Part shown: positions 1,801-30,695 of the stretch, in pieces | Numbering within the stretch: position 1 is the first letter of the stretch | Layout: each line of letters begins with the position of its first letter | Virus record (IMG/VR): IMGVR_UViG_3300028805_000116 | Origin: a virus | DNA: 64,000 nt | Strand: one strand, 5' to 3' | Position numbers and translations under genes: made by a program | The notes under the pieces: model-generated | Seen by the model: only the letters and a program-made list of their open reading frames with translations | The model's database searches: none | What the model was told of the DNA's origin: nothing

Positions 1801-1824
1801 AATACCTGTAAAAAGAGATAATAT

Positions 1825-1849: not shown

Positions 1850-1923
1850 GAATGAGGGATTTATCACATCCTGTATAAAGGATGCGGAATCTCTTTAAAT
1901 ATGGAAGAAACCTTTTTAAAGGT

Positions 1924-2160
1924 CTACTTCAGGGAAGCAAGATACTCTTCCCAAAAACCATTCTTTCAGAAACATAGAATATGTCTTTCACATCTTAAAC
2001 CATATTGTATGTAGTCATCTTCTATATCATCTATTAGATGTCGTCAGAATGATTGGAGGGTAATTAACGCATTTGTTAATTCTTCTGTTTCAACTATTAA
2101 ACTATCCTTTGTCTGAGAAAGGATTATAGTCTTATCAAAGTCTATTGTTCTCTCTGTCAT
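1924..2160 (-). CDS. Hypothetical protein, ~78 aa (MTERTIDFDKTIIL...)
   Basis: Minus-strand frame with ATG at 2158-2160 and TAG at 1924-1926. In-frame TGA read as Gly. Confidence 0.4.
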
Positions 2161-2178
2161 AGATAGATAGTTTAAGAA

Positions 2179-2958
2179 TTAAAATGCAGGTGTATAGGAT
2201 GATGATTTGTAATCACTATCATCTTTTAAATATTCTCAACCCTTGTAGTAGAGTTCAATCTCCTTATCAGGGGTAAACTTATCTTTCATAAGCTTATACC
2301 TCCTATAAGGTACACCATCACAATTACTATCCTTTTCAATTATTATGAATACATTAGATAGGTCCATTATCTTCTGAGTTCATTCCCAGGTTCAATGTCT
2401 ATTGGTGTGGTGTAATACCACTATAGCTATATCTAACTTTTGTGCTAACTCCTGTAATACAGCCATACATTTATTTTGACTCTCCCTAGCATCGTTAGAC
2501 ATATTGTTACCTATTCTAGAGAAGGTATCTATTACAAATAATTCGTAACCCATCATAGCCTTTTCATTTAGAAGGGTTTCTAAAGCATCTAATGAAATTC
2601 ATTGTGCATTATTGTAATAATCAAATTTCTTAAGCATAGTATTCACATAGTTTTGCATATCATTCTTTTCATAGTCTGATAGTTTGTTTAAATCTGTCAA
2701 AGCATCTTTACCTTTTCAATGGAACCGTAACCGTCTTGACTGTCGCATCGTCTCGATAGGAAATTCCAGGTTAATGTAGAAACCTTTTCTTCCTCTCTCA
2801 GCATTTTTACTAATTATATCCATTGCGAAGGTAGTCTTTCAAGAATTACTCTCAGCCACAATAGTGACTAATTCTCAGGACATAAAGCATCAGAAATCAT
2901 TAAAATTCTCTGATGGGTATATGAATCCTTTTTTTGTTTCAAATTGGTAGTCTTTCAT
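2179..2958 (-). CDS. RecA-family ATPase, Sak4-like, ~259 aa. Walker A VTIVAESNSGKTTFAMDII. Walker B LFVIDTF. Also IVVLHHTN.
   Basis: Hand translation of the minus strand. The glycine of the Walker A GKT is encoded by TGA. Bounded by TAA at 2971-2973 upstream and TAA at 2179-2181. Confidence 0.7.
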
Positions 2959-2984
2959 TTTTGTTGGTGGTTATGGGGTAAAAG

Positions 2985-3887
2985 TTATTTTATAACCAAA
3001 TTCACTCTACTTAATTCTCTTCATACATTATGAGCTATCTCTTTAAATTTACTCTCTCAGAACGCTTCCTTTAGTTCTGTACTTCTTTCTTTCATTTTGT
3101 TTAAGTCATCTTTATGCGTCATATGGTATTTGGCTATTTCATATAACCTATCATCCCATTGCCTATCTCAATCCCTATTAAATCCAGACAGATAGGTATC
3201 AAATTTAGGTCGGTATTGTGGGTCCTTTATTCTGTATTTAAATTCAAACTTAAATAACTTCTCATCATATAAGATATCCTGTAACTCCTTTTGAGAGAAG
3301 TTCATAGTATCAAAAAGTTTCCTAGATTTCTTTTCATCCTTTTTTATTCAGTTCTTATGATAGAAGTTTTTATATATATCTTCGAATCAAAGCGCGCTAC
3401 CAACATCATTATATAATCATTGTGTATTAGTTTGTTTAATGTCTTGTGTCTTTTCTTTACCTAAACCAGAAATAACATTAGACTGTGTAGTAGTGGTAGG
3501 TACACGAGATGCTTTAGCATCGAGTGTAGTAATATCATCACACCTTCCCTCACACTCCTTTTCATTATCATTATCATTTACATTATCATTATCATTATCA
3601 TTAGGTTTAGGTTTGGTTATGGTTTGGTTATGGTTTGGTTTTTGTGAGTTATTCCAGGTCTTAGGCGGTCTTCAACCTTTACATCAATTCATATACCTTT
3701 CATTGTTTGCATCTAACTGTGGTTTAATTAGAAGGAACATTCACATCGCAGGCCCATCTGTTTCTATTTCATTTCAATATAATCAATATTGACAAATCAT
3801 ATCAAAAAGTTTCCCTTTATCTTCATTTGTCAGAAATTTAGATGCCTCGTAGAAGCTCCTGTAAAAAACGAAACTCTCTCTCTCCAT
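2985..3887 (-). CDS. Hypothetical replication-associated protein, ~300 aa. N-terminal FYRSFYEASKFLTNEDKGKLFDMICQYGL motif. Internal low-complexity linker TKPKPNDNDNDNVNDNDNEKE.
   Basis: Continuous minus-strand frame from ATG 3885-3887 to TAA 2985-2987, with several in-frame TGA. Sits directly upstream of the RecA-like gene. Confidence 0.5.
3540..3660. repeat. Microsatellite-like tract (cattat)n followed by (ggtttggttat)n, embedded in the CDS above and encoding the ND-repeat linker
   Basis: Visible hexamer and 11-mer tandem repeats. Confidence 0.6.
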
Positions 3888-4492: not shown

Positions 4493-5440
4493 ATGTCGCT
4501 ATTCTCAGATTTTACTCAAGGAGCTATAATTCAAAATCCTAAAGCAACCTATAGTTATAAGAAGGCTTTAGAGATAAAGAAAGAAACTGAACCTGTAAAA
4601 ACCTGGAAAGAAATAAGAAATGAAATGAAAGAGAAACTTACCCCAGAAGAATATAAGAAACGACTATATAAAGAAACCTACCAAAGAAAAAAAGAAGATA
4701 TAGCTAAAAAATATCAGGAAAAGAAAGCCGAGGAAGAAGCTTATATTGAGGAAATATATAAAGAGGTATACGATATATTACCTGAGCCTCAGGATTATGA
4801 TGATATCTTTACACAAAAATATAGATGTGATGATATCGTAAAAGATAGTTACATTTTTTCTTGGTGGAGTTCTAAGTTGGCCCGTATGAATTGGAATTAT
4901 ACACCTAAACAAAAAACTCCATTTAGAATAAGTAAAAGGTATGGAATTGATTTCCCGATAAAAGCTTTAATGTGAATACAAGATAAGGCTTACAATTATT
5001 TAAAACCTCATTTAGAGGAGATAAGGAATTGTAAATATTACTTAAGTAAAAAGCAATATATTTATTCACCTATATATTACATTGATGAGCCATTAAGAAC
5101 GATAGCAGATAATTGACCAGTTAATACTGCTCGCATAATAAATGTAGCAGATTGAATGATTAGGTGAAAATTTATAGCATCTGAATTGTATCTATGAAGG
5201 AATAATTTTATCTTTTGAGATGTGCTGGTTACAAATACCTGAAATACATTTAGGATAGCCTTAGAAAATAACCTGCCTTGGCTAACTAAAGATACTGTAG
5301 AGAAAATACATTCCCTAAGAATGGACTGGTGGAAAAATAAATGAGAAAAAGCTCCACCAATATACATAGTGAATGATGCTTATTTAATCCAGATTCATCC
5401 AAATGAACGAGAAACTTTATATTATATTGTACCAACATAA
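4493..5440 (+). CDS. Hypothetical Lys/Glu-rich protein, 315 aa
   Basis: Track ORF 4493-4975 continues through 8 in-frame TGA to TAA at 5438-5440. The stop overlaps the next start (taATG). Confidence 0.55.
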
Positions 5441-6138
5441 TGCCTAAATATATACCATTAAAAAAATGAGAGAAATTCTGAAAGCTTATTGCTTTATGAG
5501 AATGCGAAAAGAGATTAATATGAAAACAATGAGCTTCTGCTCGATATGAGAAATGTAAATGTACTTGTAAAAAGTGAAAAGAATTACGAGTCGCAAGAAC
5601 ATATTTAAATACTGGCCATACTGTAAGTTGTTGATGTGCGAGGTGAATTCCAAAATTAAAACATTGAGACACGTGAAGTAAATTATATAAAATCTATATG
5701 ACCGCTAAATCTAGGTGTAATAACCCAACTTGCTATAAATATAAGCGATATTGATGAAGGTGAATAAAATTTTTACGAGATAGTTATGAAGATTTTAAGA
5801 GAGATATGTGAGAATGATATTTAGAGCACATAAAAAAATATTGAAAAGAAAATACCCAAATAGATAGAATAGATAATAATTGAAATTACTGTAAAGATAA
5901 TTGTAGACGAGTGACTTGTAAAGAAAATTCAAGGAATAGAAGGAGTAACCATTTAGTTGATTTTCGTGGAGAAAGAATTTCGCTAATAGAGGCTTACGAA
6001 AAAGCTTCTCCTAAAATATCTTTCCCAGTCTTTTTATCTAGAATCTATAATAAGTGATTAGATAAAAACGTAGAATTAGCTTTATATTGAACAAATAAAG
6101 AAATAAGAGACTTTTTATCAGTTAATAGTGAAAAGTAA
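5440..6138 (+). CDS. Hypothetical protein, 232 aa. Position just upstream of terL suggests a possible small terminase subunit.
   Basis: Frame open from ATG 5440 to TAA 6136-6138 when TGA is sense. Translationally coupled to flanking genes. Confidence 0.4.
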
Positions 6139-6139
6139 G

Positions 6140-8293
6140 ATGGCATATGGGTTTTTATATAAAGACTTTGATGCAGACAGGGGGCTATTTTATAATGGAC
6201 AGCCACAGAACTTGAAATATGTCCTAGACCCTAAAGAAGCAGAACAATGGTATGAAAAACACAGAGAATTAATGGTGTCTGTGAATATTAAACGTCCACC
6301 AGATTTAGAAATCCCTGTTCAGATACCATTAGGTACAGGTAAACTCCTTAAACAAGATATAGATGAAAAGTTTTTATCCTTTATCACAAAGGGAGCTGTA
6401 TCAACCCGTATGGAGTTCATCTTATCAAGATTTATGGATAACTATCACCTTGGTACAGATTGAACCTTTTACAGGAGAGAGAAGGAAGATGTATCAGCTT
6501 TAGATAGTACCAGAAATGTCCTGGCACTGTGTATGATGAAAGATATTATCCTATGAATATTTAGGGTTACTCCTTTAAAAATCCCAGCCTGAAAGAATAA
6601 AAAGAACCTTTGAAAGATGGAATATATTGAATGGGATATTGGTGAAGACTTTTCTATTGACTACGAGGTTCAATGAACTAAGTTTACCACAAACCTATTC
6701 TGAGTATATAAGCCTAAATTATTTGAAGCTATGCTTGCAGATACCTGAAGGACATTTAACGGATTCTGTTTACAGCGTTGGCAGATGATGGTTTGGCTCT
6801 TATCAGGTTGAGTTACCTATGTAATTTGACCAAGGTGATGAGGTAAATCATTGTATATTAACGGAGATAGTGCGGGGTATTTACTTAAAGAGATAACAGA
6901 TAGTAATGAACGTATTCAAGAATTTTCAGTTCTCTATATGGGATTATCGCAAAAGCAGAACGCACCATATATGGTTTACTCTCAACAAATGCTTAATAAT
7001 CTTATTGATTTGCCGAGTTTTTGTAACAAGTTACCTGATAGTACAGGTTTATACATCCTCGACGGAGATAAGCAGAGAAAACTTGAATATGTTACAACTA
7101 ATCAGAATGACCCTACTAGGTCAAGACGTACAAGAAAATTCGTTTGAGATGAAGCAGACTATCTTGACTGGGACTATGTAGGTACAGCTATGGCCACAGC
7201 AGATTCATTAGTTACATTAATCTCTACTATCGGTCCTGATACACAAGCTTGAAACTTCTATAAAGGTTGGCTTAATGCTTATAAAAACCAAAGAGATTAT
7301 GAACCTATAGATGTACTTATTCACGATATATGGATTAAATACTGAATGCACCTATGTAAAAGTAGAGCTGATTATATAAAGAAAATTAAGAATTGAGATT
7401 TTGAAAAAATGAGAGCCGAGTTTATTCAGCGTCGCCCAGAGGTAGCCTTACATTTTACTATGGATGATGTTGAGTTTCTTACAGAGGAACAGAGAACAGC
7501 TCAGGTAATTAGAGTTCTAAACGCTAGATGATATGACTATATGCTTGCCGAATACTATGGAGAATATTCCACAGACCAAACTGTATTCAATATTGAGTGA
7601 GTGCAGCTAGCTTGTCCTAGCGATTGTGACTATTGGGTAGTTGGTTATGATGAAGCCGATACCTTCGACAATCCTTGATTATGTATCCTTTGATGTAAAG
7701 ATTGAAAGTATTTCATTAAGGAAACATATAACTTAGCAAAGGAGAGTAATGAAAGATTTGCTAAGATGAAGAGTATTATAACCGATTACAAAAATAAATG
7801 AAAGCCAGTTTACCTTGTGCTTGACGCTTCTAGGTGATGGGCCGCAGCAAGGGAATTATGAATGTTATGAATGCCTTGTGATATGCTTATCAAATGGACA
7901 GGTAATGTTACTTATCAACCTTGAGCTAGGCATAATGTAGGTAAACAACGGTGTATAGAAATGATTAGAAGCAGCTTCTTTGATACCAACCTTATTCATA
8001 TTGACCCAGCTTGTTATGGAGAATGAGGATTAGTTGAGGAGTTGTGACACTTTAAAAAATATAAATCTTCAGCTAGAGGTGAGAAGAAAATTCACGATGA
8101 CCAGGTTTCAGGAATGATGCTTGTGCTTTATTTCGCCTGGTTCCACGACCAGCTAGCAACTAAAGATGTGAATAAACTTTGAAATCAAAAGACTAATGCA
8201 CAAATAGCTGAATGACTTTGGGCTGAGAGATACCAGAAGCCTAAAGAGACAACTTGAGATTTTCTCTCAAATTTAAAGAATAATTTATTCTAA
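6140..8293 (+). CDS. terL: Terminase large subunit, ~717 aa. Walker A VIGPRGGGKS with three TGA-encoded glycines. Walker B KFVGDEADYLDWDY. C-terminal nuclease-like region HDDQVSGMMLVLYFAW.
   Basis: Single frame 6140-8293 joins track ORFs 6128-6463 and 6851-7147. Only TGA interrupts it. Terminates at TAA 8291-8293. Confidence 0.8.
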
Positions 8294-8664: not shown

Positions 8665-11600
8665 ATGGGAGTTTGGGATAAAATAAAAAGCTGAGCTAGA
8701 AGTTTGTGGAGTTGAGTAAAAAATTTCTTTTGAGCTTGAGATAACTACGAAGAAGCCGAAGTAAAAACTCAGGAAAACGAAAATAATAAGCAAACCCTAA
8801 ACCAGCAAATACAGAATTGAATATTAAATAGTAATACCACCAACAATACCAACAATACACCAAGCTATAGAAGTGCTATCGCAGACGTTAGAGATAATCT
8901 ATGACAACAATGACAAGAAATAGATACAGTTAATAATCCTATACAGCAAAATACTCCAGAAGTAGATAAAGAAAAAGAACCAAGTATTCTAGATATATTC
9001 ACATCTTGAGAGGCTAGAAAGAAGTTATGGAATGATATTGTTGATGCCCCAGTAAACCTTACTGCACGGTGAGCTAAGAAAATCTGACAATTATCAGACT
9101 TTGTTTGAGATGTCATAGATTCCCGTAGAGCTACAAGTGAATATAATGAGAATGAAAATTTAGTTGCTGTTGGGTATAATAAGGAGAATAAAAATGTACA
9201 GTATCTAGATTTAAACGAGAGCAGATGATTATTCGATAACGACTGGTGAACTAGGAGTTGAACTAGAGATTTATATGATAAATATATGTCTGAATGGTTA
9301 AATACTCTAGATACTCCAGGAATAACTGAAGAACAAAAAGACCAAGCACTTCTTGATTTCTACGATAAAGCCAAAAACTTATTCAGGATAAGAGAGGATG
9401 ATTATTATACAAATTGATTATTTTCTGATTGATTATACCACAGAAGATATGAAATGTATACAGAAGATGAGTTAGAAAAATTATCAAAAACCTGAGACAG
9501 AGAATGAAGATATGTACCAACGTTTGATGAATTCTTAGATTTCGTTTGAGCAGATAATGCTAATAGAGCTAAGAAACAAGAGATATTTGAAAAATATTGA
9601 TTATCTGGAGAAGATGCAGAAGAATGAGAAGATACTGAATTACTTAATTTATCAGAAGATTTTCAGAGCAATTGGAAGTCTAATCTATTAAAAATTGGTA
9701 CACAGGGGTTTGATGAATATTTTGACCCTATGAGAACTGTAAACTGAAATGCTTGAACTGAAGTAGAGCTTTATGCATATTGAATTTTAAACGATAGACT
9801 AGATGCTTTATACACTAGGGTTGCTCCAATATATAATGCGGAAAGAGAAATTCTTAAAAGAGATAAATCTACACGAACTACTTGAGATAAATTCATAATA
9901 GACACAGCCAACAGATTTAGAGAAATGGAGAAGGCTTATGTTGATTGAATTAATGATTGGGTAAGGCAACAAGCATTATACTGAACATCTAAGGATGGGC
10001 ATATGGTTAGGATGCTAGATGTCTTCGAAAATTGAGAATCTCTTGCAGATGTGTTAAATAAAGAAGCTATAGAAGCAAGTTGACAGGAATGGAATCCTCA
10101 TTTGTCTATCCTAGATATTACGGGTAGAATGGCAAATGAAGCATTATATAGCTACACAAAAGACCATAATACTTGATTTTGGGCTCCATTAAAAAACCTT
10201 TGGTCTGATGTTGAATTGTTATTTGAGCCAGTAGGTAGAACATTATGAGAATGATGACAGGCATTATTTTGAATAACAATGGATACACTAAATGGTATAG
10301 TTACTTGACACGATTGAAAATTTGCAGACTATCAAGACCAAGATTTCTCTACTTGATTTATGCTAGAAACTGATGATAGTAATTTTGCTAGAACAGTTAA
10401 AAAATATGCTGTTGAAATTGGAGAGGTAGCGCCTGAAGCATTATGAAACATCGCTCCAGATGTAGCATTAGCTATGGCAACTTGACCTTGAGCTTTAACT
10501 ACAATGGCTAGACACGCAAAGGATTTAAGTAGAGTATATAAATTATCAAGGGAAGCAAAATGAGCTAGTTTCTTAAGAAAAACTTGGGCTGTATTAGCTC
10601 AAAACCCTGCGAAAGCAAGTAGAAGTTTATGACTTGATGTAGGTAAATATACTCAGATTATGTCGACTATTAAAAGCGCAAAGAATGTACCACAAACTTT
10701 AAAGACTTGAGCAGAATTACTAGATAGAGCTACAACTCAATTAGCATTATGACAGTTTATGGATTGACAATGGAGTGCTTATGATACCGAACCATATTCA
10801 AATGCTTCATTCATTATGTCTATGGTATGAAGTACAGCATTCGATGTATTCCCTGAATTATTTAGAGGACTTACCTGAAGATGACGATGGAACACTTTAA
10901 TATGAGATTGAGCCTGAGGTAATATATGGAGTCTTGCTAGATATATAGATAGTTCGCCTGAAGCGGCAGAAAATGTAGCTAGGGCTTTATGAAAGAGGGC
11001 ACAAGATATTTGAGTCGAAGATTTAAAAGCTTATGCTAGAAATTTCTGAGCAGTAGAAGAAGCTGCAAAAAAGGTATATAATCAATTGAGTGATGCTGAA
11101 AAGGCAGCGTTAGGAAAGATGACTAAATCTTTAACTTGGAATTTTATATCTCAAGCGTACTGAGCTAATTCAAATATAGGTAAAAATATCAGACTTATAT
11201 TGGCTAATGGTTCTACAAATATAGCAGATGTATATAAATATCTAGGTAAGATACCTTGAAAGGTGTCTATATGACCATATGTCTCTACTATACAATTAAA
11301 AAACTGAACAAGTGTTAATGTATTATGAACTTGAGAAAAATGAATGTATAATCCAAAATTGGATTCAATATATTCCTGAAATTTTACAACTAAACTTAAT
11401 GATTGATTCACAGATTGAGATATATCTAAATTAGGTAAAACTGATGAATTTGGTGAGTTAAGTAAAAATAAAGATAAATATTTTTATAAAGTTTGAGATA
11501 GATATTATCTAAACGAAGAATGAATTAAGAAACTTTGAATGAAAGCAGAAAATTTAACTTTAGAAGCTTTATGAGTTTCTTTAGCTAGAGCAGAAGATGT

Positions 11601-11733
11601 TAAATGAATATTTAAAGAAAAAATGAAAAACCTTAAAAATAACAACCTTAAGCCTGATACGGTAAATGCAGTAGCAGATACCTGAGCTTATGATGAGGTT
11701 GTATATAAGGTAAAAGAAGTTTTATGATGTTAA
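8665..11733 (+). CDS. Large hypothetical virion-associated protein, ~1022 aa. Portal or other head protein possible.
   Basis: Stop-free frame (TAA/TAG) from ATG 8665 (preceded by in-frame TAA) to TAA 11731-11733. Frame arithmetic is consistent at both ends. Dozens of in-frame TGA. Confidence 0.5.
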
Positions 11734-11743
11734 TATTAATTTA

Positions 11744-14700
11744 ATGGCAGTACAAGATTGTGATGATTTATCAAATATTATTGCTATATGAATATTGTCT
11801 TGAGATGATGATTTAGCTAAAGAGATAGTTAGGCTATCCACACAAAAGAGAGATTCGTTAGTTCGTGCTGGTAAACTTAAATGAGAAGATGCTGTGGAAG
11901 AAGCTACTTGACGAAGTGCTCACGAACTTGAATTAAAAGCCAATTCTGCTGATATAGAGCTCAGAGCTATTGTTCAAGCCAAAATCTTAACTTGAGAAAT
12001 TTGAAATGCGGAAGCGTATGTTGCTTTAGCAGAACAGATAACAAAGTCAGGATGAAGTATGTCTCAACAAATTAGTCTTTTAAATAAATTAAGAAGTGCT
12101 AAGGTTACAGATTTACAGGATATTGCTAAACTACGGTGATGAGCTTATAAAAATTATCCAGCTAAAGCTAAAAAAGAAATGGAAGAAGCTATAGCATCTA
12201 CTATTTCGGCTAACTATAGTATTAGAAAATATTCTGACTTTATGAGTTGAGAAGTTTCTGATTTAAAGACACAACTTAAAAATAAGAAGATAACTCAAGA
12301 ACAATATGAAGAGCAGATGAAATGACTCCATAAGAAGGTTATGGATAGAATAAACGCTTGAGAAAATCCAAAAGATTTTGTCCCTATTGATAAAGAATGG
12401 GATACTATAAAAAGAATTTACTCTACAGAGAATGTAGATTCTGATGCTATTACTGAAGTATTAGAATCCAGATGAAAAGCCTGGGTTCAATATGTAGCAG
12501 CTAGAGAATTATTAGCTGACTGAATGGTTGACGATGAATTACTTAAGGCTTTCGAGTCTTTGTTTGAAATGGATAATTTAGTAGGAGAATTAACTATTGA
12601 TGATATTGCTAAATTCTGAAAATGAGACTTAGATAAATTATTAGCCTTAGCCTTTACAAATACAGAACAATTATATAAAGATTGAATGCTAAGAGAGGCT
12701 TATAGAGCTAAACTTGTTGAGGTAACTTCTTGAATGAAAGTCTCTAAAGAGAATATAGCTAAAGCTACATCTATTATGAATACGATAGGTTTTGCTGAAC
12801 AATGAGCTTCCTTTGCTGATATAGCTACAGCTGACGCCGCAGCGCGTGCGGCTAGAAAGAGATGATTTAAGGTAAAAGATTGAAAAACTTTCTTGAATTC
12901 CTTAAAGTCATTCTTGAGAAAAGAAGAGGATAAAATGTTTGACTGACCTATTGTTATCGATTGAATAGAGATGACGGCTAAGGATATTATCCAAATTATA
13001 TACGATATAACTTGAGATGAAAATATCCTTAAGTTAATTAGAATAGGGTTTTATTCAGACGAAACTATATTATCTATTGCTACATCTAAATTGTTTAATG
13101 ATTCAGATGATGCTGCAAAGAAAATATTAAAATTATTTTCTAAGGCTTGAGATTGAAACACAATTGCCAATACTAGGAATATAGCTTTAAAAGCTATCAC
13201 TTGAGAAGAGATTAGAGAATGAGCAAAAATTGGATTCTTTAATTTTAGAAAAAATCTCTATTTTAAAGATGAATTAGATAGTGCTAAAGCTGAATTCTAT
13301 GATAAGTTAGCAGATAGAAATAAGATGAAGGTAGATTCATCTGATATTGAAGATATAACTCTAGATACTGATGATGCGGACAAAATAGCAGACAAACTAA
13401 GAAAATTTAAATGAGGGTATATTATTGTAAACGATGCTAGATATAAGACTAATAAGGCATTTAATGACGCTCTTAATAAGGTTAATAGTGAAATCAAGAA
13501 TGAAGAGGATAAGATAACTTGTATCTTTCCTAGATGATGAATGTCCTCTAGTTTTGTTATGGAATGAAAACAATTATACTTTAAAACTACAAACGCTAAA
13601 ATTTTCGATAATGTAGCTTGAACTATATCTATTCAATCTATGTGAAAATCTAGGCCGACAAGAGAAATTATTGCTAAAGCTTTTGAGGCTAAGACAGGTA
13701 AAAATGGAGATAAACTTAGATACCAGGCTAGTTATACTAAATGAGTATCTGATAGTCAATGAAGAAAACTTTCAGACCAGCAATACGAATATTTTAAAAA
13801 TTCTGTTGTGAGAGATGAGAATTGAAATTTAACCCCTGTATATCATTGAACTGTGGATAGATTCAATATCCCAGATATGTGAAAATCTAAGTTTGCTGCA
13901 CATTGACCTTGAATGTATTTTTCCACAAGTAGAGATGCTGCAGAAACATATTCTAGATTAAAAGATAATCGCTGGAACCCATTTAAGAAGCGTAGAATAA
14001 TAGAGGCATATCTTGATATTAGAAATCCTATAACTGAAGATACTGTTTGATTCGATGATGCTTGGTTAAATGAATTAGAAGCTCTATGATATATTATCGA
14101 TAGAGATATGGTTAAGAGACAGAAATGAAAGGTAAAAGATATATACAATGTTCTTTATATGTTTCAAGATAAAAAGAAGCAATGACAATTTGTTACAGAC
14201 TTTAAAAGGGTTACTTGATTTGATGGTATCAGAATAGATATGCGTTGAGATGAAAAGTATTGGATAGTATTTGAAGCTAATCAGGTAAAGTATGTAGATA
14301 ATAAATTACCTACAAGTAAGCCTAATATGAAGTATCAGGGAAGGGACAGTAATTTATTGTTTATAGAACAACCTACAGAAAAAGAAATAGATGATTACTT
14401 ATCTGAAAACAACGTGTCAGATATATTATTAAAGAGATTTTGAGAAGCTAAAAGTTTAGACGAGTGATTATTTATTACAAGGGATTGAAAAATAATTTCT
14501 TGAAGATATAGACCAGATATATATCCAGTTAATAAAATTTGGGATGATGCGTGATACAAATTAAATTTAGAACATCCTACTGCTATAGAAACTGCCGTAT
14601 TCGATTTGTGGAAAAATGTGGGGAAGGCTGACACGTATGAAACTGCATCTAAAATGCTTTTGGATAGAGCGATGGAAAAAGAATGATTAATCCGCATTCG

Positions 14701-17700
14701 CCCAAGAATTTTGTCTGATTGAAATGAGCTTATTATTACTATAGCTAGTAAAGAATTAAGCCCACAACAAAAGGCTGTTCTTTCGGAATATATTTCAAAA
14801 TTTAAAGAAGACTTTAGGGAATGAACTAGATGACAGATTACAGTAGAGGCCCAACGGACAGACAATAAGGGGATGTACCCTGGCGAGACTATTAATGTAG
14901 GCTTAAATACCAACATTAACGATATTGATAAAGTATTAAAAGAAAAAATAAATTCTCAAATTAGTGAGCATATTCCTGATGAACAAGTTTTAAAAAATAG
15001 AGCTAAACAAAAGGAGACTTATTGAGAAGGAATATCATTAATAAGGCTATGAGAAAAACAACCATCATTTATGAGACGTTTAGATGATTATGTTTCTCAG
15101 CAAGATGTAGCAGCAACTGATGCTATGAAGGCGCAGATGTTTACAAAAGATAGAACTGTTCAAGAAATAGCTGATGCTTATTGAGTATCTGTTGAGTTTG
15201 TAAAATGAACTAATATGATTGCTTGAGTTGAGGCTTATTGAGCGTATTGAGATGGTATTATCTATTTCACAGATATGGTTAAGGAGAGTACAGCTCCACA
15301 CGAATTGTTCCACGCCATATTTGATATGCACGTAGGTAAAGAACAACACGATAAATTACTCAAACAATGAAGTAAACTCTTCAATGTTAGTGAAGACGAA
15401 ATGGAGGAAATAATGGCAGATAGTTTTGCTCATTGGTTTAATACTTGAGAGTTTATTTACTGAGACGAACTTATAAAGGCTGCTAAAAAGAAGAGACCTA
15501 ATAAAGCAGAAAAATCATTTATAAATAAGGTATTAGAAGTCTTTAAAGACTTAAAGAAATGGTTATGATTAATGGATGACCATAGGGCTGAAGTTAAACA
15601 GATGTTCGACGATATGGTAAATATGAAATATCTACCAGACGCTTGAAAAGCTGTTGAAGCTACGGAAGCTATGATTAAATATAATGATGACTTGGAGAAG
15701 GCTGCTATAAAATACTACTGACAATTACTTTGAGATTACCAAGAAGACTTATCTCCAGAATATATTGAAAGGATTCGCACGAAACTTTCAGAAAAAACTT
15801 GAATTGATTTTAAATCTTTTGACCAAATCCAAGATAAGGCTCTACTATGGCAAAAGGTTGATGAAGCTTTTGTTGTAGATAAATTAGTTTCAGGTAGATA
15901 TGATAAAGAGATTGTAGATGTAGACAATTTAATTAATTGAATAGAGAAACTTACAGATAAAGAGTTAGAGGATGTTATATTCAAAGATTTATGAGTTTTA
16001 AGTAAATGATGAAAGGTTGTAGGTAGAGATACTATTGATGCAATAAGAAACGCATATATAGATTATAAAACTGCCTGAAATGCCGTAGATAGTTTAATAG
16101 CTAAAGGTAAACTTACAGCTTATATACATTGAACTGAGGCGCAGAATGTATCTATGGAAGATATAAGGGCAATATTCCAGAATTGAACATTCGCTCAAAA
16201 ATATAAAGAAATGTTCTTCCCTAATCAAAAACTTACAGCAAAAGAAGAACAAGAGATAATAAAACAAATCAATGATAATATATTTGATACTTTATCAATT
16301 CAGTTTGCTGAAAATTTAGTATCAGCTTGATATGAATTGCCTTTGATAAATATCAAAACATTTATGTATGACTATTTAAATTGAAAGTTAGACTTAAATA
16401 ACAAGTTTGTTGAAGCATTTCTTTATAAAAATAATATTCCATTTTCATCCGATTGATTAAGATGAATTGTAGATAGTTTAATGCCATCAGAATTAAACTT
16501 CAACTATAATTTCTCAAATTATTCATATTGACTTGGGCAAAGGCCTCACGTCTGAGAAAAGGCTGTGTTCAAGGAAGTTGATAATAGGTTTGTTATGGAC
16601 AGTTATTCAGCTTTAGCCTGAATAGAATTAGCTGCTAAGTGATGAATTCCTGAAAATGAGGAAAGGAAAATATTAGAAGAAATCCTTACTAAATATGTAA
16701 ACGAGGTAATTAAATGAGTCAAAGATTGAACGTTAGATTTCAAATGAGCTCAAGAATTAAAACAAGAAGTATGATATGCTTTAGATATGTTTGAACAGGA
16801 TATATTATTGCCTAAATATGGTATATTCTTATCTCCTCAAGAAAAGCAATGACTTATAGGAATGAAATATGACTTGCCTATTTGAGTAAAATGACAAAAC
16901 ATAACTAATGTGACTAAGCAGCTAAACGACATAAAACAGAAGCTCTTAAATAAATATGATAATACGCTATGAAGTATAGTAGAAAATAATGATATTAATG
17001 AAGCAATTCTTAAATGAATTAAAAGTGAAGATGAAAGAATACAAAAGAAAATAGATGCTAGAAGAGATATGTTAGCTGAGAGGTGATGAGTTATCAGAGA
17101 GGTTAATTGACAATATTTGGTATATAATGCTAAACAGGCATTAGAATATGCTTTAGAAGATTTGCCTCCAAGTATTAATTGATTAGAATGACTTAGAGTG
17201 CTATGAAAAGAATGAATTGATAAATTATCTAATCAACAGGCATATGCTTTACTTAGATATATAGAAGCTGCTAAAAGCCTAGATGCCACAGCTTGATATG
17301 CTATAGAGCTTATGTATAAACAAAACCCTATGCTACTTCAATATAATTTCTTTGAAGCATATAGAGTATGAGACCAATGAATTCCTAAAGCATTAGAATG
17401 AAATTCATTAAATTTTGACAAACTATTATCTAGATTAGAAAATACAGCTAAGCTTGATGAAACATCTAAGAAGAATATATTTGAATGAGTTATTAATAAG
17501 TTTAGAAAACAATGATATGTTACTAATGATGACTTAGATGATATTATTGATAAGTGAATAAAAGAAGCATACGCAACATATAAACAGTCGCATATGTCTC
17601 CTAAAGAGATAAAGAAAGCCGTAAATAAAATGAAGAATATTTACAAGAAAGCTTTCGCTCCTTACACTTATTTAAGAGATATTCCTTCTTGAGGAACTGT

Positions 17701-20700
17701 AGATTGAGTAGAATTCAGGAATATAAAATCTAAAGTAAGGGAGGCTATGAAACAGCAATACAATCAAGCTATGGAAGATTTAAAGTCGGTATGAATTACA
17801 AATACGGATTGAATTCAAGATACTATATATCTCACCCTTCCAACTTGACAGAAGATGTCTCTTAGAGATGCTTCTACATTAGATGTTGATAGTTGGAAAA
17901 AATGAATATTTAATGATGAAAGTGTTTATGTAGCTTGAGCTGATGAATTATGAGCTGCTTGAAAGAAGACTGTAGAAGAGCAAAAGGAGTTCAGGAAAAC
18001 TATGGTTAACGAATATGACTCGACATTACAGACTATACTGAACCAATCTCAGTTTATTAGCGAATCAGAAAGAGCATTACAAGGTTCTATTATGAGTGAC
18101 GTAAGGGCTATGTTAAGACAATGAAATCTTACAAACTTAATAGTAGATGCTTTAGATGCCGTAAGTTGACTTAATGAAGAGGCTGCTAGATGAATAAAGG
18201 ATTATCTTATCTGATGGAAGTGAAACGTTTCATTCTGAAAATGGAAGTCTTCTCAGATTATAGAGAGAAATGAATTAGTAAAGAAAGCATACGCACAATA
18301 TTATGCTATGGATTTGTCTAAACTTAATAAGGTAACTCCTTGAACAAAAGCAGAAGACTTAGCTTTAAGATTAGCAAGATACTTTAAAAATTTGGAAAGA
18401 TTATTAGGTAGTGCAGATTGAGTAACTTGATGTACTACAAGTAATCAATTAAATAGAGCGTTCTTCCATATAGGTGAAGTTGTTATGAATGTGGATAGTG
18501 TAAAGTGAATTTTCTGATTATTATCTGCGGTAGAACAAAACCAGATATTAAAGTTGTTTAAGTTTGCTAAGTGAGATTTAAGAAAACAAGCTGAGGTATT
18601 TATTCGTAAAGGTAAAGGTAATTTTACTGAGAGCCTTTGATGATATAGAGACTACGCAGAAGATATTAGTTGAATTACTAGAGATGAGTTCAATGAGATT
18701 TTCTGAACATCATTTAACGAGGACGATTTTAAGAAAATACTTCAATGACTTACAGGTTTCTCATTGGTATGATGAGTTACTAAACCTGTTATGAAAGCAT
18801 TGAATTTCTTGAGCTGAACTAATTTCATATTTAGAGCTGCAATGTCTTACCCTTGACAGCTACTTACAATTCCTTTACAAAGCACAGCATATTTCTTAAA
18901 ACAGATATGATTTGAAAGAGCTTTGGATATTGATAGCTTATCTGATATTGACGAAGTTAGAGTTCATTATTGAATTTTGGATTGAGCATATAACGAAATT
19001 AATTGGTTTAATAAAAAATATAGGGTTAGTCCAGATGATGTTAGAGTAGATAGTTACTATAATAGGTACTGAATCCCTGATGTAGAATGAATTTATAAAA
19101 CTACATCCATAGAGAGCAGTGATGATTACATAAATATGTATGCTAAAATTAATAATCAAACTGCATCAAGTATCAGTTCTACAAATAAATGGATAAGACA
19201 ACTAGACCCATATAAAGATAATGCAAATAACATTATAGACTGATTATTCGCTAGAAACTTTAAAAACATAGCGTTCCAAAAAGCTATAAGACAGAATGAC
19301 TTTATGCAATTTTCTTCAGCAAAAGAGTTCTTAGCCTTTATGGAAGACCCTACGGTATGAGGTTCTGTAAAGCAAAAACTATTAGATAGAGTTGCTGCTT
19401 ATTCAGGTAGAAACTTTAGAAATATCCTTTGATTAGGATTCTGATGAATTGATAGAGCTGTATGATGAAGTGGATTTGGAAACATAATGTACTGACTTAT
19501 GCAGATGTTTAACTTTAGATGAAGTTGGTGACAGAATATATTTAAACAAGCTTGAGCTGCTATTAAGACTTGACTAAAGATAGTGAAAGCAAATCCTTGG
19601 TTAAGTAGAGAATGAAGAGATGCCGTTGGTAGATATATAGCTACACAGCCAGAATTTATGAATTTTGTCTGAGCTTTATTTAATGACTTAAAACGAAGTT
19701 GGAGGTTACAAAGATTCCAAGATAATTGAAGATGGCCAGATAACGAAGATATGTATGTGACTACAGAGTTCTGAGATGTATTTGACGCATATTCAGCTTT
19801 AGATTTTATAGATTACTTAACAGAATCTTTAAGTCTTACTTCACAATTATTCCAGTGAATACAATCATTCTGACCTGCTAGACCAATATTAGAATGAGTA
19901 GAAAGCGCATATAAATCATATATGGACCCTACAATTTATAAAGATACATTCTGAATTTGAGCTTTCTTTAATGCTTTATGAAAGAACTTCTGAAGACAAT
20001 GGAAACCACATAACTGGATTGCTAAAGCATTATGAGCCTTAACTACAGATTGACCTGAGGCATTCTGGACATATGTACAAAATGAATGGTATAAATTATC
20101 ATTTGGTTCTGTAAGGTATATGGTTAATGAAGATAGTAATTCTTATGGATATACTTTCGAAATGACTTGACAACAATGATGAATTCCGTCTATTATAATG
20201 TGAGAATGAAAACAAGGTTCTGATAAAAATTTCTCTTATGAAATAGATAATACAGAGACTTGGGAGACTATAAAACAATTATTTAGTAGCTGAAACTCTT
20301 GGGACGATAGACTTACATATGCCTGAAATCTTTGAAAAGCATTTGTTAACTGAAGTCAGTTCTTTAGTTTATGGAAGAATGCTTGAAAGGCTTGGAATAG
20401 GAATGCTCCAAGTTATTATACAGCAGATGATTTAGCAGATGTTTTACAAAATACTGAAGCTTGATTAGAGTTTTACCAGAAATGAATTGTAACTCCTAAA
20501 ACAAAAGAAGAAGCTGAGATATTCTTTGATACAATATTAGAAAATTCTAAGTTCCGTCCTTGAAGTAGTAATTTTACTAAATCATTAATCAATTATGAGG
20601 ATTATTGACATATGAATGGTAAAGAGAAATGAAATGAAGCTGATGCTGAAATGGAACTTTGGCTAGACCATATGAAACACGTAACTGATGACCATTGAGT

Positions 20701-21952
20701 TATAAGAAAAAATTGAAGCGAGGAGACGGTTGACCCATCTTGGAATAAATTAATTAATGCTGTTAGAAGTTGAGCTTACAATGGAACTTATACAACAAAC
20801 TTGATTTATAACTATGCTAAGACTTGGTTAGACAACCATTCGTCTGACCCTAACTATCAGCTTTATCTTAAACTCTTATGACAATGACAAGCTCATAAAT
20901 TAATTGAGTCTACACAAGACGATATTATAAAAGCTTGGAATGCTGGTAAGAAATGAGTTGATAATAAATGGACGGAGACTGAGTTCAAAAACGCCTGATT
21001 AAGGAGAGATATGTTATTATCTATGTGAAACACTCCTTTACCTTGAGATACTGAAACATTCTTTGATAAACTACAAGTTCTAGATGAGGATAATGCCACA
21101 GTTGCAGCATTACAAATCATTCAGAACCAAGCAAAAGAATGAGATAGAAAAATTATTGATAAGTTCTTTAATGTAAAAGAGAATGATGATTGAACAAAGT
21201 CTGTTACATTAAGAAGACAATATGAAAGTACATTAACTCAGATTTGAGCTGTTGCTAAAGCTATTGATGAATGAAATCTTGAGAGGGCAATATCTGAATC
21301 TTCTATTCTTACAAATATGTATAAGAACCAAGACCCATCAGGAGCTGTAACTGCTACATTGATTGATAGTGTTGTTAATAGAATATACGATACAGATAGT
21401 TTTTCTCCTGAGCAAAAGCAAGAAGCTATTATAGCATTATTCCATCATAATAAAGAATTCATACAAAAGAATCCAGAAAAGCTAAGAGAATTATTATGAG
21501 ATGAATATGATACTTATGCTAATTATATGAATCAGATGCTTTATCAATGGGATTGAGCATTATTGTCTACATTAGAAAGTATGCAGACTAGCTGAAAAGG
21601 TTCATCTTGAACTGCTAAGAAAACTAAAGCTACTTCTAGTGAATTGAAGAAATTAGCCGCCTCTCTAGGTAATGAATGATGAGCTAGAGGAACTTGAACT
21701 GTATGAAGCACAAAATCTTGGGTACCTGTTATTATTAAGTGAGCAGACTTAGTAAAGGAGTTATGAGTAAAATGATATACTCCTAATAAGGTATCATTGT
21801 CTATAAATGCTTATAAGCCTAAGATAGATTTAAGTATAGCTAAAGATATTAACAGAAAAGTTAAATGACCTAAGACACAACAGATATCAAACAAAAAACA
21901 ATTAAGTAAACTTGAAGATAAGGTTACAAAAGCTACTGAAGCAGAAAGTTAG
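11744..21952 (+). CDS. Giant protein, ~3402 aa, polyvalent-protein-like. HExxH zincin-like motif PHELFHAIFDMH at about 15296-15330. H-Y-E-class ADP-ribosyltransferase-like motif VYHGT...GPGMYFSTS near 13850-13950.
   Basis: Single frame from ATG 11744 to TAG 21950-21952. Same frame mod 3 as track ORF 21317-21499 which lies inside it. No TAA/TAG over 10.2 kb, >150 in-frame TGA. Confidence 0.6.
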
Positions 21953-22095: not shown

Positions 22096-22419
22096 ATGTC
22101 AATAGATGTAAATCAGATGGAAGACGATGTTCTAACAGAACACGTTGCTCCAGAGAATGAAAAGGCTAGGGAAATGCTGGACAGATTATGCCAAGAAGAA
22201 ATGTGAATGTCTGCTCAAGAGCTTTACCTTAGATGAATTTTACAAGAGATTAAATATCTACAAGATAATGCCAAAGATGGTAGCGATAGAGAAAAGTTAT
22301 TAAAGTACCTCAAGGAGGTAGATAATATATGTTGATTCTCTAAAGATAAAAGGGATGTAAAGATAGAAACTAAGTTACGTAGTGCATCCGACATTTTTAA
22401 TTCAACTAATCTAAATTAA
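22096..22419 (+). CDS. Hypothetical protein, 107 aa
   Basis: ATG 22096, TAA 22417-22419 overlapping the next start (taATG). Confidence 0.5.
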
Positions 22420-24461
22420 TGGAAAACATAGATAGCGAAGTAAAAAAGCAAGAGCAGGAGGCTAAAAAGAAAATCTACCAAGACAACTCCACTGATGCTG
22501 AACGCACCATCTACGGAAAACTCAAAAACATTTTAATCCATTTCAGAGATAATATCTTTCCAGAATGGTTTGATGTTATTAAAATGGATAAACTATATTC
22601 TAAAGAATATGAAGCTTGACTTAAAAAACATAATATGCAATATAAGTCAGCTAAAATATATCCACTTATCACTTCTATCCACGATACATTTATGGCTTCA
22701 TTATACGATAATGACTTGAGACCAAAGATATATCCTATGGAAGAGGTAGAACCATCTACAGTTGATGATGCCCAATTGTTCTTTCAATGGGGAACTGAAA
22801 TATCTGAAACAGAACAAACAAACGAAATTATTAGAAATGAGGCTTCATTAATTTGAGCTTCTTACTGAATGCCAGGTTATACAACAAGCATTATGAAAAA
22901 CGACGATTGAGATAACGTCGTAACATTCATACCTTGCCTATTCCCTGTATCAGCTTTTGAAATGTTTTATAGTGTCTGAGCCACAGATTTCTATAAAGCC
23001 CCAGAGAAGTTTAGAAGAAGATTTATCCCTTTTGATTGACTTAAAGATGCTTTCTACCCTATATGGGATTGAAAGGATTGAATGGGTAAACAAGTAGAAA
23101 AAAAGAAAACAGCTATCCTAGACGCACCTATGCCACTCAGTAAAGCAGATTTTACAAAGATATATGATATTGATGCGTATTCCGCAACGTATTTGGGAAA
23201 CTTGGGTGATGGAACTCCTACTGGTATGATTTATGATACTACATTTAATATTTTGGATAGTTCTAGCTACTGTGAAGTAGTTGACCTATACATAGGTGAT
23301 AAGCTTATGGTTATGGTAAATGGTTACTTTGTTTATTCAGGAGAGAGCCCTTTTAAATATTGAGAAGACTTTGCTATCTCTTGAAAAGATTGACCATTTA
23401 TAGAGTTAACATTTGAAAAAGGAGTTTGATGTATTCCAAGTGGAATTTGAAAGAAAGTTATGTGACATCAGAAGCAGTGTAATGCTTTATTTAACTCTAT
23501 AGCAGATGCTGTTTATAGACATTTAAATCCTGTATTAGCAGCAGTTCAATGAGCTATTACTGACCCTACCACAGGTAACGCTCCTACAAGTATTGGCTAT
23601 GATGAATGAAAGGTTTATTCAATTAATCCATCATACGCTTGAATGAATAATGCTATTACAAAGATAGACTTTACTGATTACAATATCCTTCAATTAGCTA
23701 TGAATCAGTTTGAGAATATCAAAGCTGATGCCTATACTATTTGTTGAGTTAACTCATATGTTCTAGGTTGAGAATGAAAAATTGAACGTTCAAGATACTG
23801 AGCAGAGCAAAGGGTTAATGCCTCTAAAGCTAGACTTAGCCCAATGATTAAATCTATAGGTAGATTCTATGCTAAATTATTCTATCATTGGCTATGACTT
23901 GCTAAACAAAGTTGAGCTAGTGTAGCTTATGTACAGAACGAAGATGAAGAGTATGTAATTAATTTATCTGAATTAGATAAGAAATTTAAAATTGTATGTT
24001 CAGCAGATATCGGAGTTGAAGAAACTAAAGCTTCTAAAGTTCAATGATTATTGACTATGATGCAGAACACTTCAGCATTTGCTACTAACCCTATTACAGG
24101 ATTACCTGATATTGACAATAGGGCATTCCTTGAAAGTGTTGCAGATTATGCAGGACTTAAAGGATTTAAAGCTATGTCAACCGATGAACAGAAACAATAT
24201 ATTGATGATAGTTATGTAATTAAAGATTACATTCAACAAAAAGAAATAGAAGCGCAACAACAAGCACAACAAGCACAACCTCAACCAGAAGAACAGGCTA
24301 TGCCAGCTACCAATGAGCAACCTTCAGAAGAGGAGCTTGCTATGATGATGCAACAAGCACAGTGAGCTAGTCCAGACCAATCAACATTACCTTATGTAAA
24401 TTCACAATATCCTACGCAACAAATAGACGATAGCCAACTTGACTTCGTGTTGCCACAATAA
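22419..24461 (+). CDS. Putative portal protein, ~680 aa. Assignment rests on position, size and an acidic Q-rich C-terminus only.
   Basis: Track ORFs 22419, 22635, 23082 and 24051 are all in one frame and joined by in-frame TGA. TAA at 24459-24461. Sits immediately upstream of the scaffold-like and capsid-like genes. Confidence 0.4.
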
Positions 24462-25722: not shown

Positions 25723-27228
25723 ATGGCAGGAACACAAAGTTGTAATCCTTGTGATGCTACTGGATTAGCTGAGAAAAGTGTAGCTTTTCAGGACATCCTA
25801 AACCCATTGTACGCTAATGGTAGAGTTCTCGAAACTTGGGGACAGTATGAAGATTTCCTAAGATATGAGACAATTTTCTTCGATGTAGTACCTCAAAAAG
25901 ACCCTACAACAGGAGAAGTATATGTAACTTATAAATTCAAAGATGGTTTAGCTGCTTCTAGCGAACTAACTTTGTTAGACAACGAATGTAAAGTTGGATG
26001 GTATGAACCAAAAATCTGTGGAGAAGAAACTGAAATTACTGAAGTTAACGGAAAAGAAATTACTGTTGCTTCTTTGGCAAAATTAGGTGGAGTTAACAGA
26101 GATTCTACAATCCTAGTTACTAGACAAGGAGGAAATCCAGTTAATGGACTTTACATTGAATCAGTTGCTTTAGTTGATGAAACTGACCCTAAAGGACCTG
26201 GAGTTATCACTTTGAAAGAAGCTCCTTCAGTTCAATTAGCCGCTGGTGACAAAGTTAGAAGAGGTGCTTACTTAAGAGACAGAAACTGTAATACAGAAAT
26301 CTTCAATCCAGTAAGACTTGGAGATATGGATTACTATTCAGCTTTCTTCAGAACTATCTCTATCTCTCACGAATTCAATTGGTGTGATTTGAACAAAGAC
26401 TACCTTATCTCTGGAGGAATCCAAGCTATCGTAGATGCTATGTTCAGAAAAGGAGATGTAGAAGCTATTAAAGAATTCTTACACGCTGCTTTCTATGACA
26501 GAAACATTCAAGTTGGTGATTATAAATGGGAGACTATGGGACTATTCCCAGCTCTTGCTGCTGCTCAAGACGGAGGACTTAAGATTGCTTTCGACCTTGA
26601 AGGATGTTGCGACCCAGCCGCTTCTGAATGTACAAATGCTAGACATCAAATTCAAGCTTTCTTAGATATCGTTATTAATAAAGCTATGATTTCTGGAATG
26701 TACAAAAACAACGTAACAGTTGCTATGAACAAAAAAGCTATGGAAGGACTTCATATGATGCAAGGATATTTCCAAGATTATGGAAATGTTGGATTCTTAG
26801 ATGGAAGCAATTATGACATCGATGTTGGATTACCAAGAATTAGATATGCTGGTATTACTATCACTTTCAAATATCTTCCAATCCTTAACGATTTCGACTT
26901 CTCTGTAATGTTGACAATCCCTGAAGAAAAAGTTGGAGTATTCCAACCTAAATATACTGTAGTTGATACTAACGGTAAAGTTGTACAAAACGCTAATATT
27001 AACGGATACATCTCAAAAGGAACTCCTATGTTGAGATACTTACCAGATAATCCTTACAACATCTGAGCTCAGCTTGGAGAATGTAACAAGATTGTTGGAG
27101 ATGTTAAATTCGCTGTAGTATGGATGTGAGTTGATAAAGGAGCTTACAGATTCATTAAGAACTTTGGAAAATGTGTATTGAACAGTTGTCCAGTATGCGG
27201 ATTAGATGATGTAGATTTCTTAGACTAA
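25723..27228 (+). CDS. Putative major capsid protein, ~501 aa
   Basis: Track ORF 25723-27066 has no TGA over 447 codons. It continues through 2 TGA to TAA 27226-27228. Follows the scaffold-like gene and is followed by a strong terminator. Near-absence of TGA suggests a highly expressed gene. Confidence 0.45.
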
Positions 27229-30338: not shown

Positions 30339-30695
30339 ATGAACGAATTAGATGCCATACAAGAACAAATGGCCGCTCTAGGTATTGATGTGTCTCCAGA
30401 GGCACAGCAGGCCCCTATGTATGACGAATCTGCTATGCTTACTCCAGAAGATGAAGCAATGTTCGCTCCTGGGTGAGAATACGCTATTGAAGAAGAAATT
30501 CCAACAGAGACTATGCCAGCAGATGTTATGCCAGCAGAGGGAGAGCTTCCACAAGAAATGCCAGCTTATGATATCGAAGAGCTTAAAATAGACATCCAAC
30601 CTATGTTACAATGACTTCCTAAGGAAGAATTTGCTAACTTAATTATTTGGATGGCAGAACAATTTAATTTATTAAATGCAGAAAACAATGCCTAG
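30339..30695 (+). CDS. Acidic hypothetical protein, 118 aa
   Basis: ATG 30339, TAG 30693-30695. Overlaps the next start (ATGCCTAG). Confidence 0.45.

Follow-up and report, generated by a model that had tools for sequence, protein, structure and literature searches.

A stretch of virus DNA 64,000 nucleotides long (IMG/VR record IMGVR_UViG_3300028805_000116; hereafter the window) holds on its plus strand, at 11744-21952, a frame long enough to encode one protein of 3,402 amino acids (aa), which raises the question of whether such a frame is a single gene and, if so, what role so large a product could have for a phage. Here we report that it is one gene, read in genetic code 25 with TGA as glycine, and that its product joins a backbone peculiar to its clade with an inserted effector cassette, which contains an ADP-ribosyltransferase (ART) domain and a probable metallopeptidase. 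With moderate confidence, we favour the reading that this giant protein is a phage 'polyvalent protein' carried in the virion.

A single giant gene in which TGA encodes glycine

The frame at 11744-21952 (+) is free of TAA and TAG over 3,402 codons up to its terminal TAG, for which base composition gives a probability of about 1e-102, and the remaining five frames of the same stretch contain 60-318 of these triplets. TGA occurs in frame 210 times, compared with 47 GGN and 34 TGG codons. Under code 11 the 64-kb window yields just 3 open reading frames of at least 150 aa, whereas under codes 4 or 25, with TAA and TAG as the sole stops, it becomes a compact phage-like gene array; in code 25 its 44 tabulated genes end in TAA (39) or TAG (5). 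A codon alignment of four genes with two relatives shows directly that TGA stands for glycine: it was paired with TGA 179 times and with glycine codons 58 and 50 times; codons for Ser, Asp, Ala and Asn came next, and Trp was the partner just 3 times. Moreover, the glycines of the ART motifs (YH-G-T and G-P-G-MYF; codon indices 701, 720 and 722) are written as TGA. The start codon is supported by the conservation of the N-terminus, MAVQDCD or MAVKDCD, in relatives. The protein uses all 20 letters, with a maximum residue share of 9.4%, and is not of low complexity. No tRNA genes were found in the 64-kb window, so that the phage presumably needs its host to decode TGA.

The opposite view, that this is not one gene and that the frame arises by reading through real TGA stops or by a mis-assembly fusing several genes, could appeal to the 210 in-frame stops seen under code 11 and to two relatives, L008 and L009, in which the giant gene looks split. 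However, TGA pairs with glycine codons and is kept in frame among the relatives, the Pfam-conserved glycines of the ART motifs are among the TGA codons, TAA and TAG are confined to the other frames, and relatives hold continuous homologues of 2,552-3,965 aa. The apparent splits match exactly the runs of N that mark scaffold gaps (L008 9811-9910; L009 942-951) and duplicated sequence, which in L008 lies in the flanks; a two-gene giant in these loci was therefore rejected as an assembly artefact. The evidence from code, frame and relatives already refutes this alternative, which we consider to have virtually no chance of being correct. An earlier note on this DNA had proposed one giant gene in table 25 and had named two things that would overturn the proposal, namely a TAA or TAG splitting the frame and motifs arising by chance in low-complexity sequence. 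Re-inspection revealed no such codon, the composition is as given above, and both modules described below are conserved in the family, so the single gene stands as proposed.

Use of the reassigned codon differs between genes of the window. In the probable major capsid gene at 25723-27228 (+), TGA accounts for 2 of 46 glycine codons (4%), and the capsid relative in L001 likewise has only 2 TGA, while TGA encodes 25-91% of the glycines in every other window gene of at least 200 codons (the giant gene: 82%). Perhaps the reassigned codon is avoided in the gene that is expressed most highly.

The giant gene and its parts are listed here.

11744..21952 (+): giant gene, 3,402 codons plus TAG, TGA read as Gly (code 25)
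11744..13678 (+): N-module (aa 1-~645), without a Pfam or PHROGs match, aligned in almost every full-length relative
13679..15643 (+): variable effector cassette (aa ~646-1300), hotspot 1, of low occupancy in the family alignment
13814..14314 (+): ART-PolyVal domain (aa 691-857), Pfam PF18760
13844-13846, 13916-13918 and 14222-14224 (+): H701, Y725 and D827, the ART triad by motif conservation
14351..15013 (+): cassette middle segment (aa ~870-1090), common to L008, P0077 and P0084 by alignment
15119..15643 (+): HExxH module (aa ~1126-1300), probable gluzincin-type metallopeptidase, by 13-copy alignment
15299-15313 (+): H1186, E1187 and H1190 of the HExxH module
15407-15409 (+): E1222 of the HExxH module
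15644..21949 (+): C-module (aa ~1301-3402), present in all 19 relatives
21716..21949 (+): Lys-rich tail at the C-terminus (aa ~3325-3402), preceded by a Gly/Ser linker, by family tail alignment

An ADP-ribosyltransferase domain of the H-Y-D class

The ART-PolyVal family of Pfam (PF18760), the ART family by which phage polyvalent proteins are defined, matches aa 691-857 with E = 9e-19 and 69.1 bits, against a gathering cutoff of 31.2, and the match covers model positions 1-139 of 140. The motif VYHGT...GPGMYFSTS, which lies at nucleotides (nt) 13838-13930 and had been noticed earlier as ART-like, thus belongs to a full domain. Its triad comprises H701 in VYHGT, Y725 in GMYFS and D827 in TGFDGI. 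Across 12 family copies of the ART, the Asp in the motif G[YFI]DG[IVL], which is D827 here, is present in 12/12, H701 in 10/12 and Y725 in 9/12, whereas the position of E844 (in IVFEANQ) is taken by E, N, S, D, T or G. E844 is the glutamate implied by the earlier assignment to the H-Y-E class; since it is not conserved and the invariant acidic residue is D827, that assignment has to be changed to H-Y-D. In the Tox-ART-HYD2 clade, the His lies on strand 1, the Tyr on strand 2 and the Asp on strand 5 (Iyer, Burroughs, Anand, de Souza & Aravind 2017, J Bacteriol, PMC5512222), and we assign the strands of the giant's domain from the order of its motifs, not from structure. The profile match and the motif conservation confirm a genuine ART of the H-Y-D class (Tox-ART-HYD2 clade), with a triad that looks catalytically intact.

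Pfam also detects ART-PolyVal in 9 of 10 relatives' cassettes and in L008. A blastn search with nt 13500-16500 against 50,697 phage genomes gave no match, and the closest ART matches in deposited phages have 26-35% identity. One of these, from the Dickeya jumbo phage JA33, is a stand-alone protein of 225 aa; it is the sole match whose context was looked at, and this context was uninformative.

A short motif, [LMIV][KRH][YF][QM], lies on either side of the ART domain, as LRYQ at aa 658-661 (13715-13726) and MKYQ at aa 862-865 (14327-14338). Copies stand about 40 aa ahead of and about 20 aa past the ART in most cassettes at hotspot 1, and the motif is missing at the junction of cassette-less relatives; about 0.6 occurrences per protein are expected by chance. 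These flanking copies are candidate module junctions or protease sites.

A conserved HExxH module of probable metallopeptidase type

The sequence PHELFHAIFDMH lies at nt 15296-15331, and its HExxH motif reads HELFH (aa 1186-1190). In a protein of this composition, the chance expectation for HExxH is 0.014. Thirteen copies of the module from 12 proteins align over ~175 residues, down to 23% identity to the window copy, and P0097 holds a fourteenth, more divergent one. In the 13-copy alignment the H, E and H are invariant, as is a Glu within E-x-[LM]-A-[DN]-x-F, ~31 residues downstream; in the window this Glu is E1222 of EEIMAD (column E97), and A1225, F1228 and a few hydrophobic positions are invariant as well. 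Judged by this conservation, the motif is not a chance match. The metallopeptidases of polyvalent proteins are described as carrying HExxH on one helix and the Glu on the next (PMC5512222), and an HExxH with a downstream Glu is the gluzincin arrangement, in agreement with that description. We therefore read the sequence as a probable gluzincin-type metallopeptidase in which E1222 would be the third metal ligand.

Among the Pfam matches below threshold, the most recurrent family is DUF5700 ('putative zinc dependent peptidase'), found in 8 of 13 copies with a best E of 7.7e-5; with the whole cassette as query, its scores, where listed, are 16-19 bits against a cutoff of 25. Peptidase_M78 and WLM are further sub-threshold matches. 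Profile alignment by hhalign gave a probability of 2% against the metallopeptidase region of N4 gp50 and 16% against P0001, despite the shared HExxH...ExxAD spacing.

Structure models were built from the database sequences of relatives, which place Trp at every TGA-encoded Gly. An AlphaFold2 (AF2) model of the module, made with the P0084 sequence, had a mean predicted local distance difference test (pLDDT) score of 64. The residues equivalent to HExxH (76-80) were placed within a helix at 74-85, with a block-mean pLDDT of ~74-76, and the Glu within a helix at 107-124, both helices being modelled at pLDDT roughly 74-85; the sheet expected of such a fold was modelled as helix. The structure check suggested by the earlier note thus recovered the two helices that bear the motif residues but not the sheet, and the poor quality of the model is probably due to the Trp residues standing at TGA-encoded Gly.

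A clade-specific backbone with an exchangeable cassette

The loci of relatives were reached through homologues of the capsid gene at 25723-27228, which survives standard gene calling because it is nearly free of TGA; it has 73 homologues with 48-98% identity on metagenomic contigs of up to 81 kb. The giants in these loci measure 3,602 aa in L001, 2,662 aa in L005 and ~3,771 aa in L008. A profile of the C-terminal ~900 aa, run against 1.84 billion representative proteins, matched only 38. Of these, ~19 span the full length, as giants of 2,552-3,965 aa, and almost all are Trp-rich code-4 translations. Other searches returned one weak match with aa 640-1300 and only two fragments with aa 2200-2900 translated in code 4, and pattern scans of IMG/VR, run with the cassette and the capsid protein, were empty. 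Public protein databases translate these relatives with code 4, which puts Trp at ~6-8% of positions.

A BLAST map and a 19-sequence family alignment divide the protein into three parts, and the search for metagenomic relatives recommended in the earlier note has in this way delimited the boundaries of N-module, cassette and C-module. The N-module (aa 1-645) and the C-module (aa ~1300-3402) are common to virtually all ~19 relatives, with an occupancy of 87-99% for the N-module, while the cassette interval (aa ~650-1300) reaches only 25-41%. In the window the cassette consists of the ART-PolyVal domain, an uncharacterised middle domain (aa ~870-1090), for which Pfam gives no match at E <= 5, and the HExxH...E module. 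Five relatives of 2,687-2,881 aa (P0080, P0081, P0091, P0094 and P0098) lack the cassette and have the two flanking modules joined directly. P0087 has two ARTs and P0088 two HExxH modules; P0089, P0090 and P0095 carry ART/HExxH cassettes at a second internal site, past window aa ~1589; and in P0097 the cassette is N-terminal. Altogether, relatives carry 0-2 copies each of the ART and of the HExxH module. The giant is thus a backbone with an optional cassette that turns over among relatives. TGA makes up ~5% of codons in the cassette and 6.2% in the rest of the gene, and this similarity suggests that the cassette has long resided in code-25 genomes and is no recent import from a standard-code genome.

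By eye, cassettes of relatives also contain JAB/RadC-like (F[HY]HNHP...S..D) and ParB-like (AEGNHRLAAA, with EGNHR) motifs, located in P0089 at aa ~1240-1260 and ~1790-1810, in L008 at aa ~1287-1303 and in P0079 at aa ~1040-1055. They stand at motif level, with no Pfam support at E <= 0.01.

The C-module is 52% identical to that of L001 and 28% to that of L005, and its best-kept core lies at aa ~2200-2900. The 80 near-invariant residues of the backbone are mainly Gly, Pro, aromatic, Asn and Arg, acidic residues being few. No transmembrane segments were found in it, the maximum 19-residue hydropathy being 1.2. An AF2 model of a 674-aa backbone core was all-alpha with pLDDT 51, which is too poor for a fold search. 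We consider the backbone, of ~2,750 aa, to be soluble, clade-specific and, with low confidence as to its fold, mostly alpha-helical. At its end, a Gly/Ser linker is followed by a Lys-rich stretch of ~70 aa, most members terminating in ...KKQLS..E.K..KA.EAES, and this tail is a candidate signal for packaging or for interaction with the portal.

Genomic context and probable host

In every relative examined, the giant gene directly precedes a small gene and the portal gene, and the order giant, ~107-aa gene, portal, scaffold-like gene and capsid-like gene is the same in L001-L008. The main neighbours in the window are as follows.

5341-6138 (+): HNH endonuclease (phrog_374, E = 1.9e-42), overlapping the putative large terminase gene by 11 nt
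6128..8293 (+): putative large terminase, assigned solely by Walker A GPRGGGKS, a DEAD-like Walker B and its position
8665..11733 (+): 1,022-aa upstream gene without a family match, ending 10 nt before the start of the giant
22419..24461 (+): portal gene (phrog_156, E = 6e-8; phrog_332, E = 7e-9)

A 1,010-aa homologue of the 1,022-aa upstream gene occupies the same position in L008. The putative large terminase (721 aa) has no terminase match in PHROGs, Pfam, NCBIfam or PDB; the pairing of HNH endonucleases with terminases is common. The identity of the capsid-like gene is likewise unsupported by PHROGs, Pfam, NCBIfam and PDB profiles, and tblastn with the capsid and portal against the 50,697 deposited phage genomes gave no match. 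The earlier placement of the giant between head-assembly genes holds on the downstream side, where the portal has profile support (E ~1e-8), but on the upstream side it depends on the Walker motifs and the position of the presumed terminase.

Elsewhere in the window, 30676-41634 (+) holds a run of large fibre-like genes (543, 581, 229, 1,577, 287 and 418 aa), in which repeated motifs are common to 32335-34080 and 34805-39538 and no gene for a tail tube, sheath or tape measure was recognised. The 323-aa product of 46387-47358 (+) shows papain-like cysteine peptidase motifs by eye (QGTLGACTS ... GGHCIALVGW ... NSW) and has no PHROG match; its gene precedes that of a membrane protein at 47382-47888 which could be a holin, and it may be a lysis enzyme. 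At the edge of the window, 1-882 (-) is a low-complexity frame extremely rich in Asn, Lys and Ile, with 2 TGA and zero GGN codons, which is atypical for the window; the stretch may be non-coding, AT-rich DNA, or else it may encode a very unusual protein.

Absconditabacterales use code 25, and their phages mostly share this code (PMC10746230); the host is likely to belong to Absconditabacterales or a related code-25 lineage. Among the contigs found, L011 (JAZUKX010000100.1, 9,978 bp; match at 1-1221) encodes a capsid homologue with 70% identity and was binned in a metagenome-assembled genome (MAG) of Candidatus Absconditabacterales, which is a hint at the host lineage or else a co-binning artefact. 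P0045, deposited under a Methanobrevibacter MAG, is almost certainly mis-binned.

Role of the giant protein

Phage polyvalent proteins have ART and metallopeptidase domains as their hubs, are encoded among virion genes and have been argued to be packaged and injected (PMC5512222). The giant resembles them in combining at least two conflict-related domains, the ART-PolyVal domain and the HExxH...E module (the enzymatic identity of the second being probable), in the variability of its architecture, its cassette being absent, duplicated or relocated among the 19 relatives, and in its late or virion gene location, where a small gene and the portal follow immediately downstream. From this position and from the published logic for polyvalent proteins (PMC5512222), we infer that the giant protein is packaged and injected; its enzymatic activities and targets are proposed in the same conditional sense. 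It would be made late, from the packaging and head operon, and be incorporated into the capsid beside the portal by means of its conserved backbone and possibly its basic C-terminal tail, then be ejected into the host along with the DNA. There the ART would use NAD+ to modify host proteins, in take-over or counter-defence, and the metallopeptidase would either autoprocess the protein, releasing or activating its modules, or cut host targets.

Several results weigh against this reading. The head-module context rests on the portal, since terminase and capsid are without profile support. In Pfam, PHROGs and PDB the backbone has no homologue of known function, and across the whole giant Pfam gives no match to MuF or SPP1 gp7 (Phage_Mu_F, MuF_C) at E <= 1. 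The metallopeptidase proposed in the earlier note proved to lie where it had been placed and to form a conserved module of gluzincin type, but the module reaches the threshold of no curated zincin profile; its copy in the window matches no zincin family in Pfam or PHROGs, and a profile of the module found nothing among PDB sequences.

If the virion is left out of the picture, the protein could be one that is made late and acts, unpackaged, in the producing cell, in host shutoff, anti-defence or as an assembly factor, its adjacency to the portal being incidental. Encapsidation is indeed only inferred, no MuF or portal-fusion anchor was found by Pfam, and the enzymes are accessory in that five relatives lack the cassette. 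Nevertheless, a conserved 2,750-aa backbone that always stands beside the portal is hard to square with a cytoplasmic carrier, and the biology of phage proteins with ART-PolyVal indicates delivery at infection (PMC5512222), so we judge this explanation unlikely.

Even less credence goes to two readings that give the backbone itself a familiar function. It might be a virion RNA polymerase like N4 gp50 or those of crAss-like phages, too divergent to be recognised, to which the ART and the metallopeptidase would be accessory; its 3,402 aa are comparable to the 3,500 aa of N4 gp50, its HExxH...E.MAD signature aligns with HELVH...EAYAD of N4, and nothing else in the 64-kb window was recognised as an RNA polymerase gene. 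However, hhalign against the N4 metallopeptidase region returned only 2%, BLASTP and phmmer of the window's late proteins against N4 proteins including gp50 found nothing at E <= 0.1, there is no match to a virion RNA polymerase in PHROGs, and the gene order is unlike that of N4. Furthermore, few of the near-invariant residues are acidic and they show no evident multi-Asp catalytic motif, and the 674-aa core was modelled as all-alpha, at low confidence. We regard the polymerase as quite improbable; an N4-like affiliation was rejected at the level of BLASTP and phmmer similarity. The remaining candidate is a tail tape-measure protein, or another length-determining protein, that gained enzymatic domains. 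The giant is very long, mostly helical as modelled, and has Gly-rich conserved motifs such as GLGFGGIDRAVGGSGFGN, and some tape-measure proteins carry peptidase or lysozyme domains. Yet among close relatives the length ranges over 2,552-3,965 aa through gain and loss of cassettes, which is incompatible with a ruler, and this 1,400-aa range excludes such a function. The gene also lies between the putative terminase and the portal, outside the tail module at 27-42 kb, hydrophobic and transmembrane segments are lacking, and no tape-measure profile matches, which together make this reading very improbable.

Within the reading that we prefer, a virion-carried polyvalent protein, a bolder version can be put forward tentatively, although we judge it somewhat unlikely: the ~2,750-aa backbone would be a new, clade-specific delivery vehicle of the virion whose effector cassettes are swapped and are released by the protease. 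At least two internal insertion sites and the N-terminus would receive an ART, a probable zinc protease and possibly JAB- and ParB-like modules exchanged between related phages, and the resident metalloprotease would cut, after injection, at the [KR]-[YF]-[QM] motifs around the ART. If true, this would make the giant a phage counterpart of polymorphic toxins and the first system for host manipulation to be described in phages infecting code-25 bacteria from the candidate phyla radiation (CPR), here Absconditabacterales.

CPR phages are known almost only from metagenomes, and standard gene callers shred their genes because TGA encodes Gly, which leaves most of their biology without annotation. 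The present locus suggests that a clade of code-25 phages carries the polyvalent logic of ART plus metalloprotease on a new backbone, and its insertion hotspots and fast cassette turnover are the signature that a continuing arms race with the host would be expected to leave. The ART domain offers a handle on phage targets in Absconditabacterales, and relatives with and without the cassette form a natural series for the role of the backbone itself. The locus also illustrates how public code-4 translations, with Trp at ~6% of positions, degrade the inference of homology and structure.

Comparison with known systems

The closest parallel is with the phage-type polyvalent proteins (PMC5512222), with which the giant shares its nature as one giant polypeptide encoded in a late or virion cluster, the combination of both hub domains, ART and (probably) a zincin-like metallopeptidase, and a domain content that shifts between close relatives, with duplication of ART or metallopeptidase. 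The domains described for that class include MuF, portal, SNF2, methylase, ArdC, LPD and RNA polymerase (PMC5512222), whereas ~80% of the giant is a backbone without a match to any of these. In addition, its effectors form a cassette nested at defined sites inside the backbone and are not strung along the chain, it is written in code 25, and its HExxH module is unmatched by the Pfam model of polyvalent metallopeptidases.

N4 gp50 and the N4-like polymerases, of which the polyvalent RNA polymerase of Roseovarius Plymouth podovirus 1 (CBX87992) is an example (PMC5512222), are likewise proteins of ~3,500 aa with an HExxH...E of metallopeptidase type, and some N4-like members share the ART clade. 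The C-terminal region of the N4 protein is important for encapsidation, and the giant has a conserved C-terminal tail; it differs in having no sequence similarity to N4 late proteins, another gene order and no recognised polymerase motifs. Effectors fused to MuF (the phage Mu gp30 / SPP1 gp7 family) also place an ART-PolyVal on a head-associated protein beside the portal gene. Their example P0001 has MuF_C (2e-20) and ART-PolyVal by Pfam, and an HExxH...ExxAD segment that resembles the window module, whereas the giant is without MuF or MuF_C, lies upstream and not downstream of the portal, and is three times larger. As a functional model, T4 Alt is an ART that is synthesised late, packaged into the head and injected along with the DNA, and that modifies host RNA polymerase and other proteins, but it belongs to the R-S-E clade (PMC5512222), is a single-function protein of 70 kDa and has no sequence relationship to the giant. 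With bacterial polymorphic toxins the giant has in common a conserved delivery or scaffold part, rapidly exchanged enzymatic 'tips' and the ART clade (PMC5512222); its variable part, however, is internal and not C-terminal, there is no evidence for an immunity gene, and it is encoded by a phage and not by a cell.

Giant phage proteins bearing ART and metallopeptidase domains are thus an already described class, and the giant is not categorically new. What is new is a backbone family confined to one clade, the nesting of cassettes at recurrent sites, and the occurrence of both in code-25 phages that lie outside reference collections.

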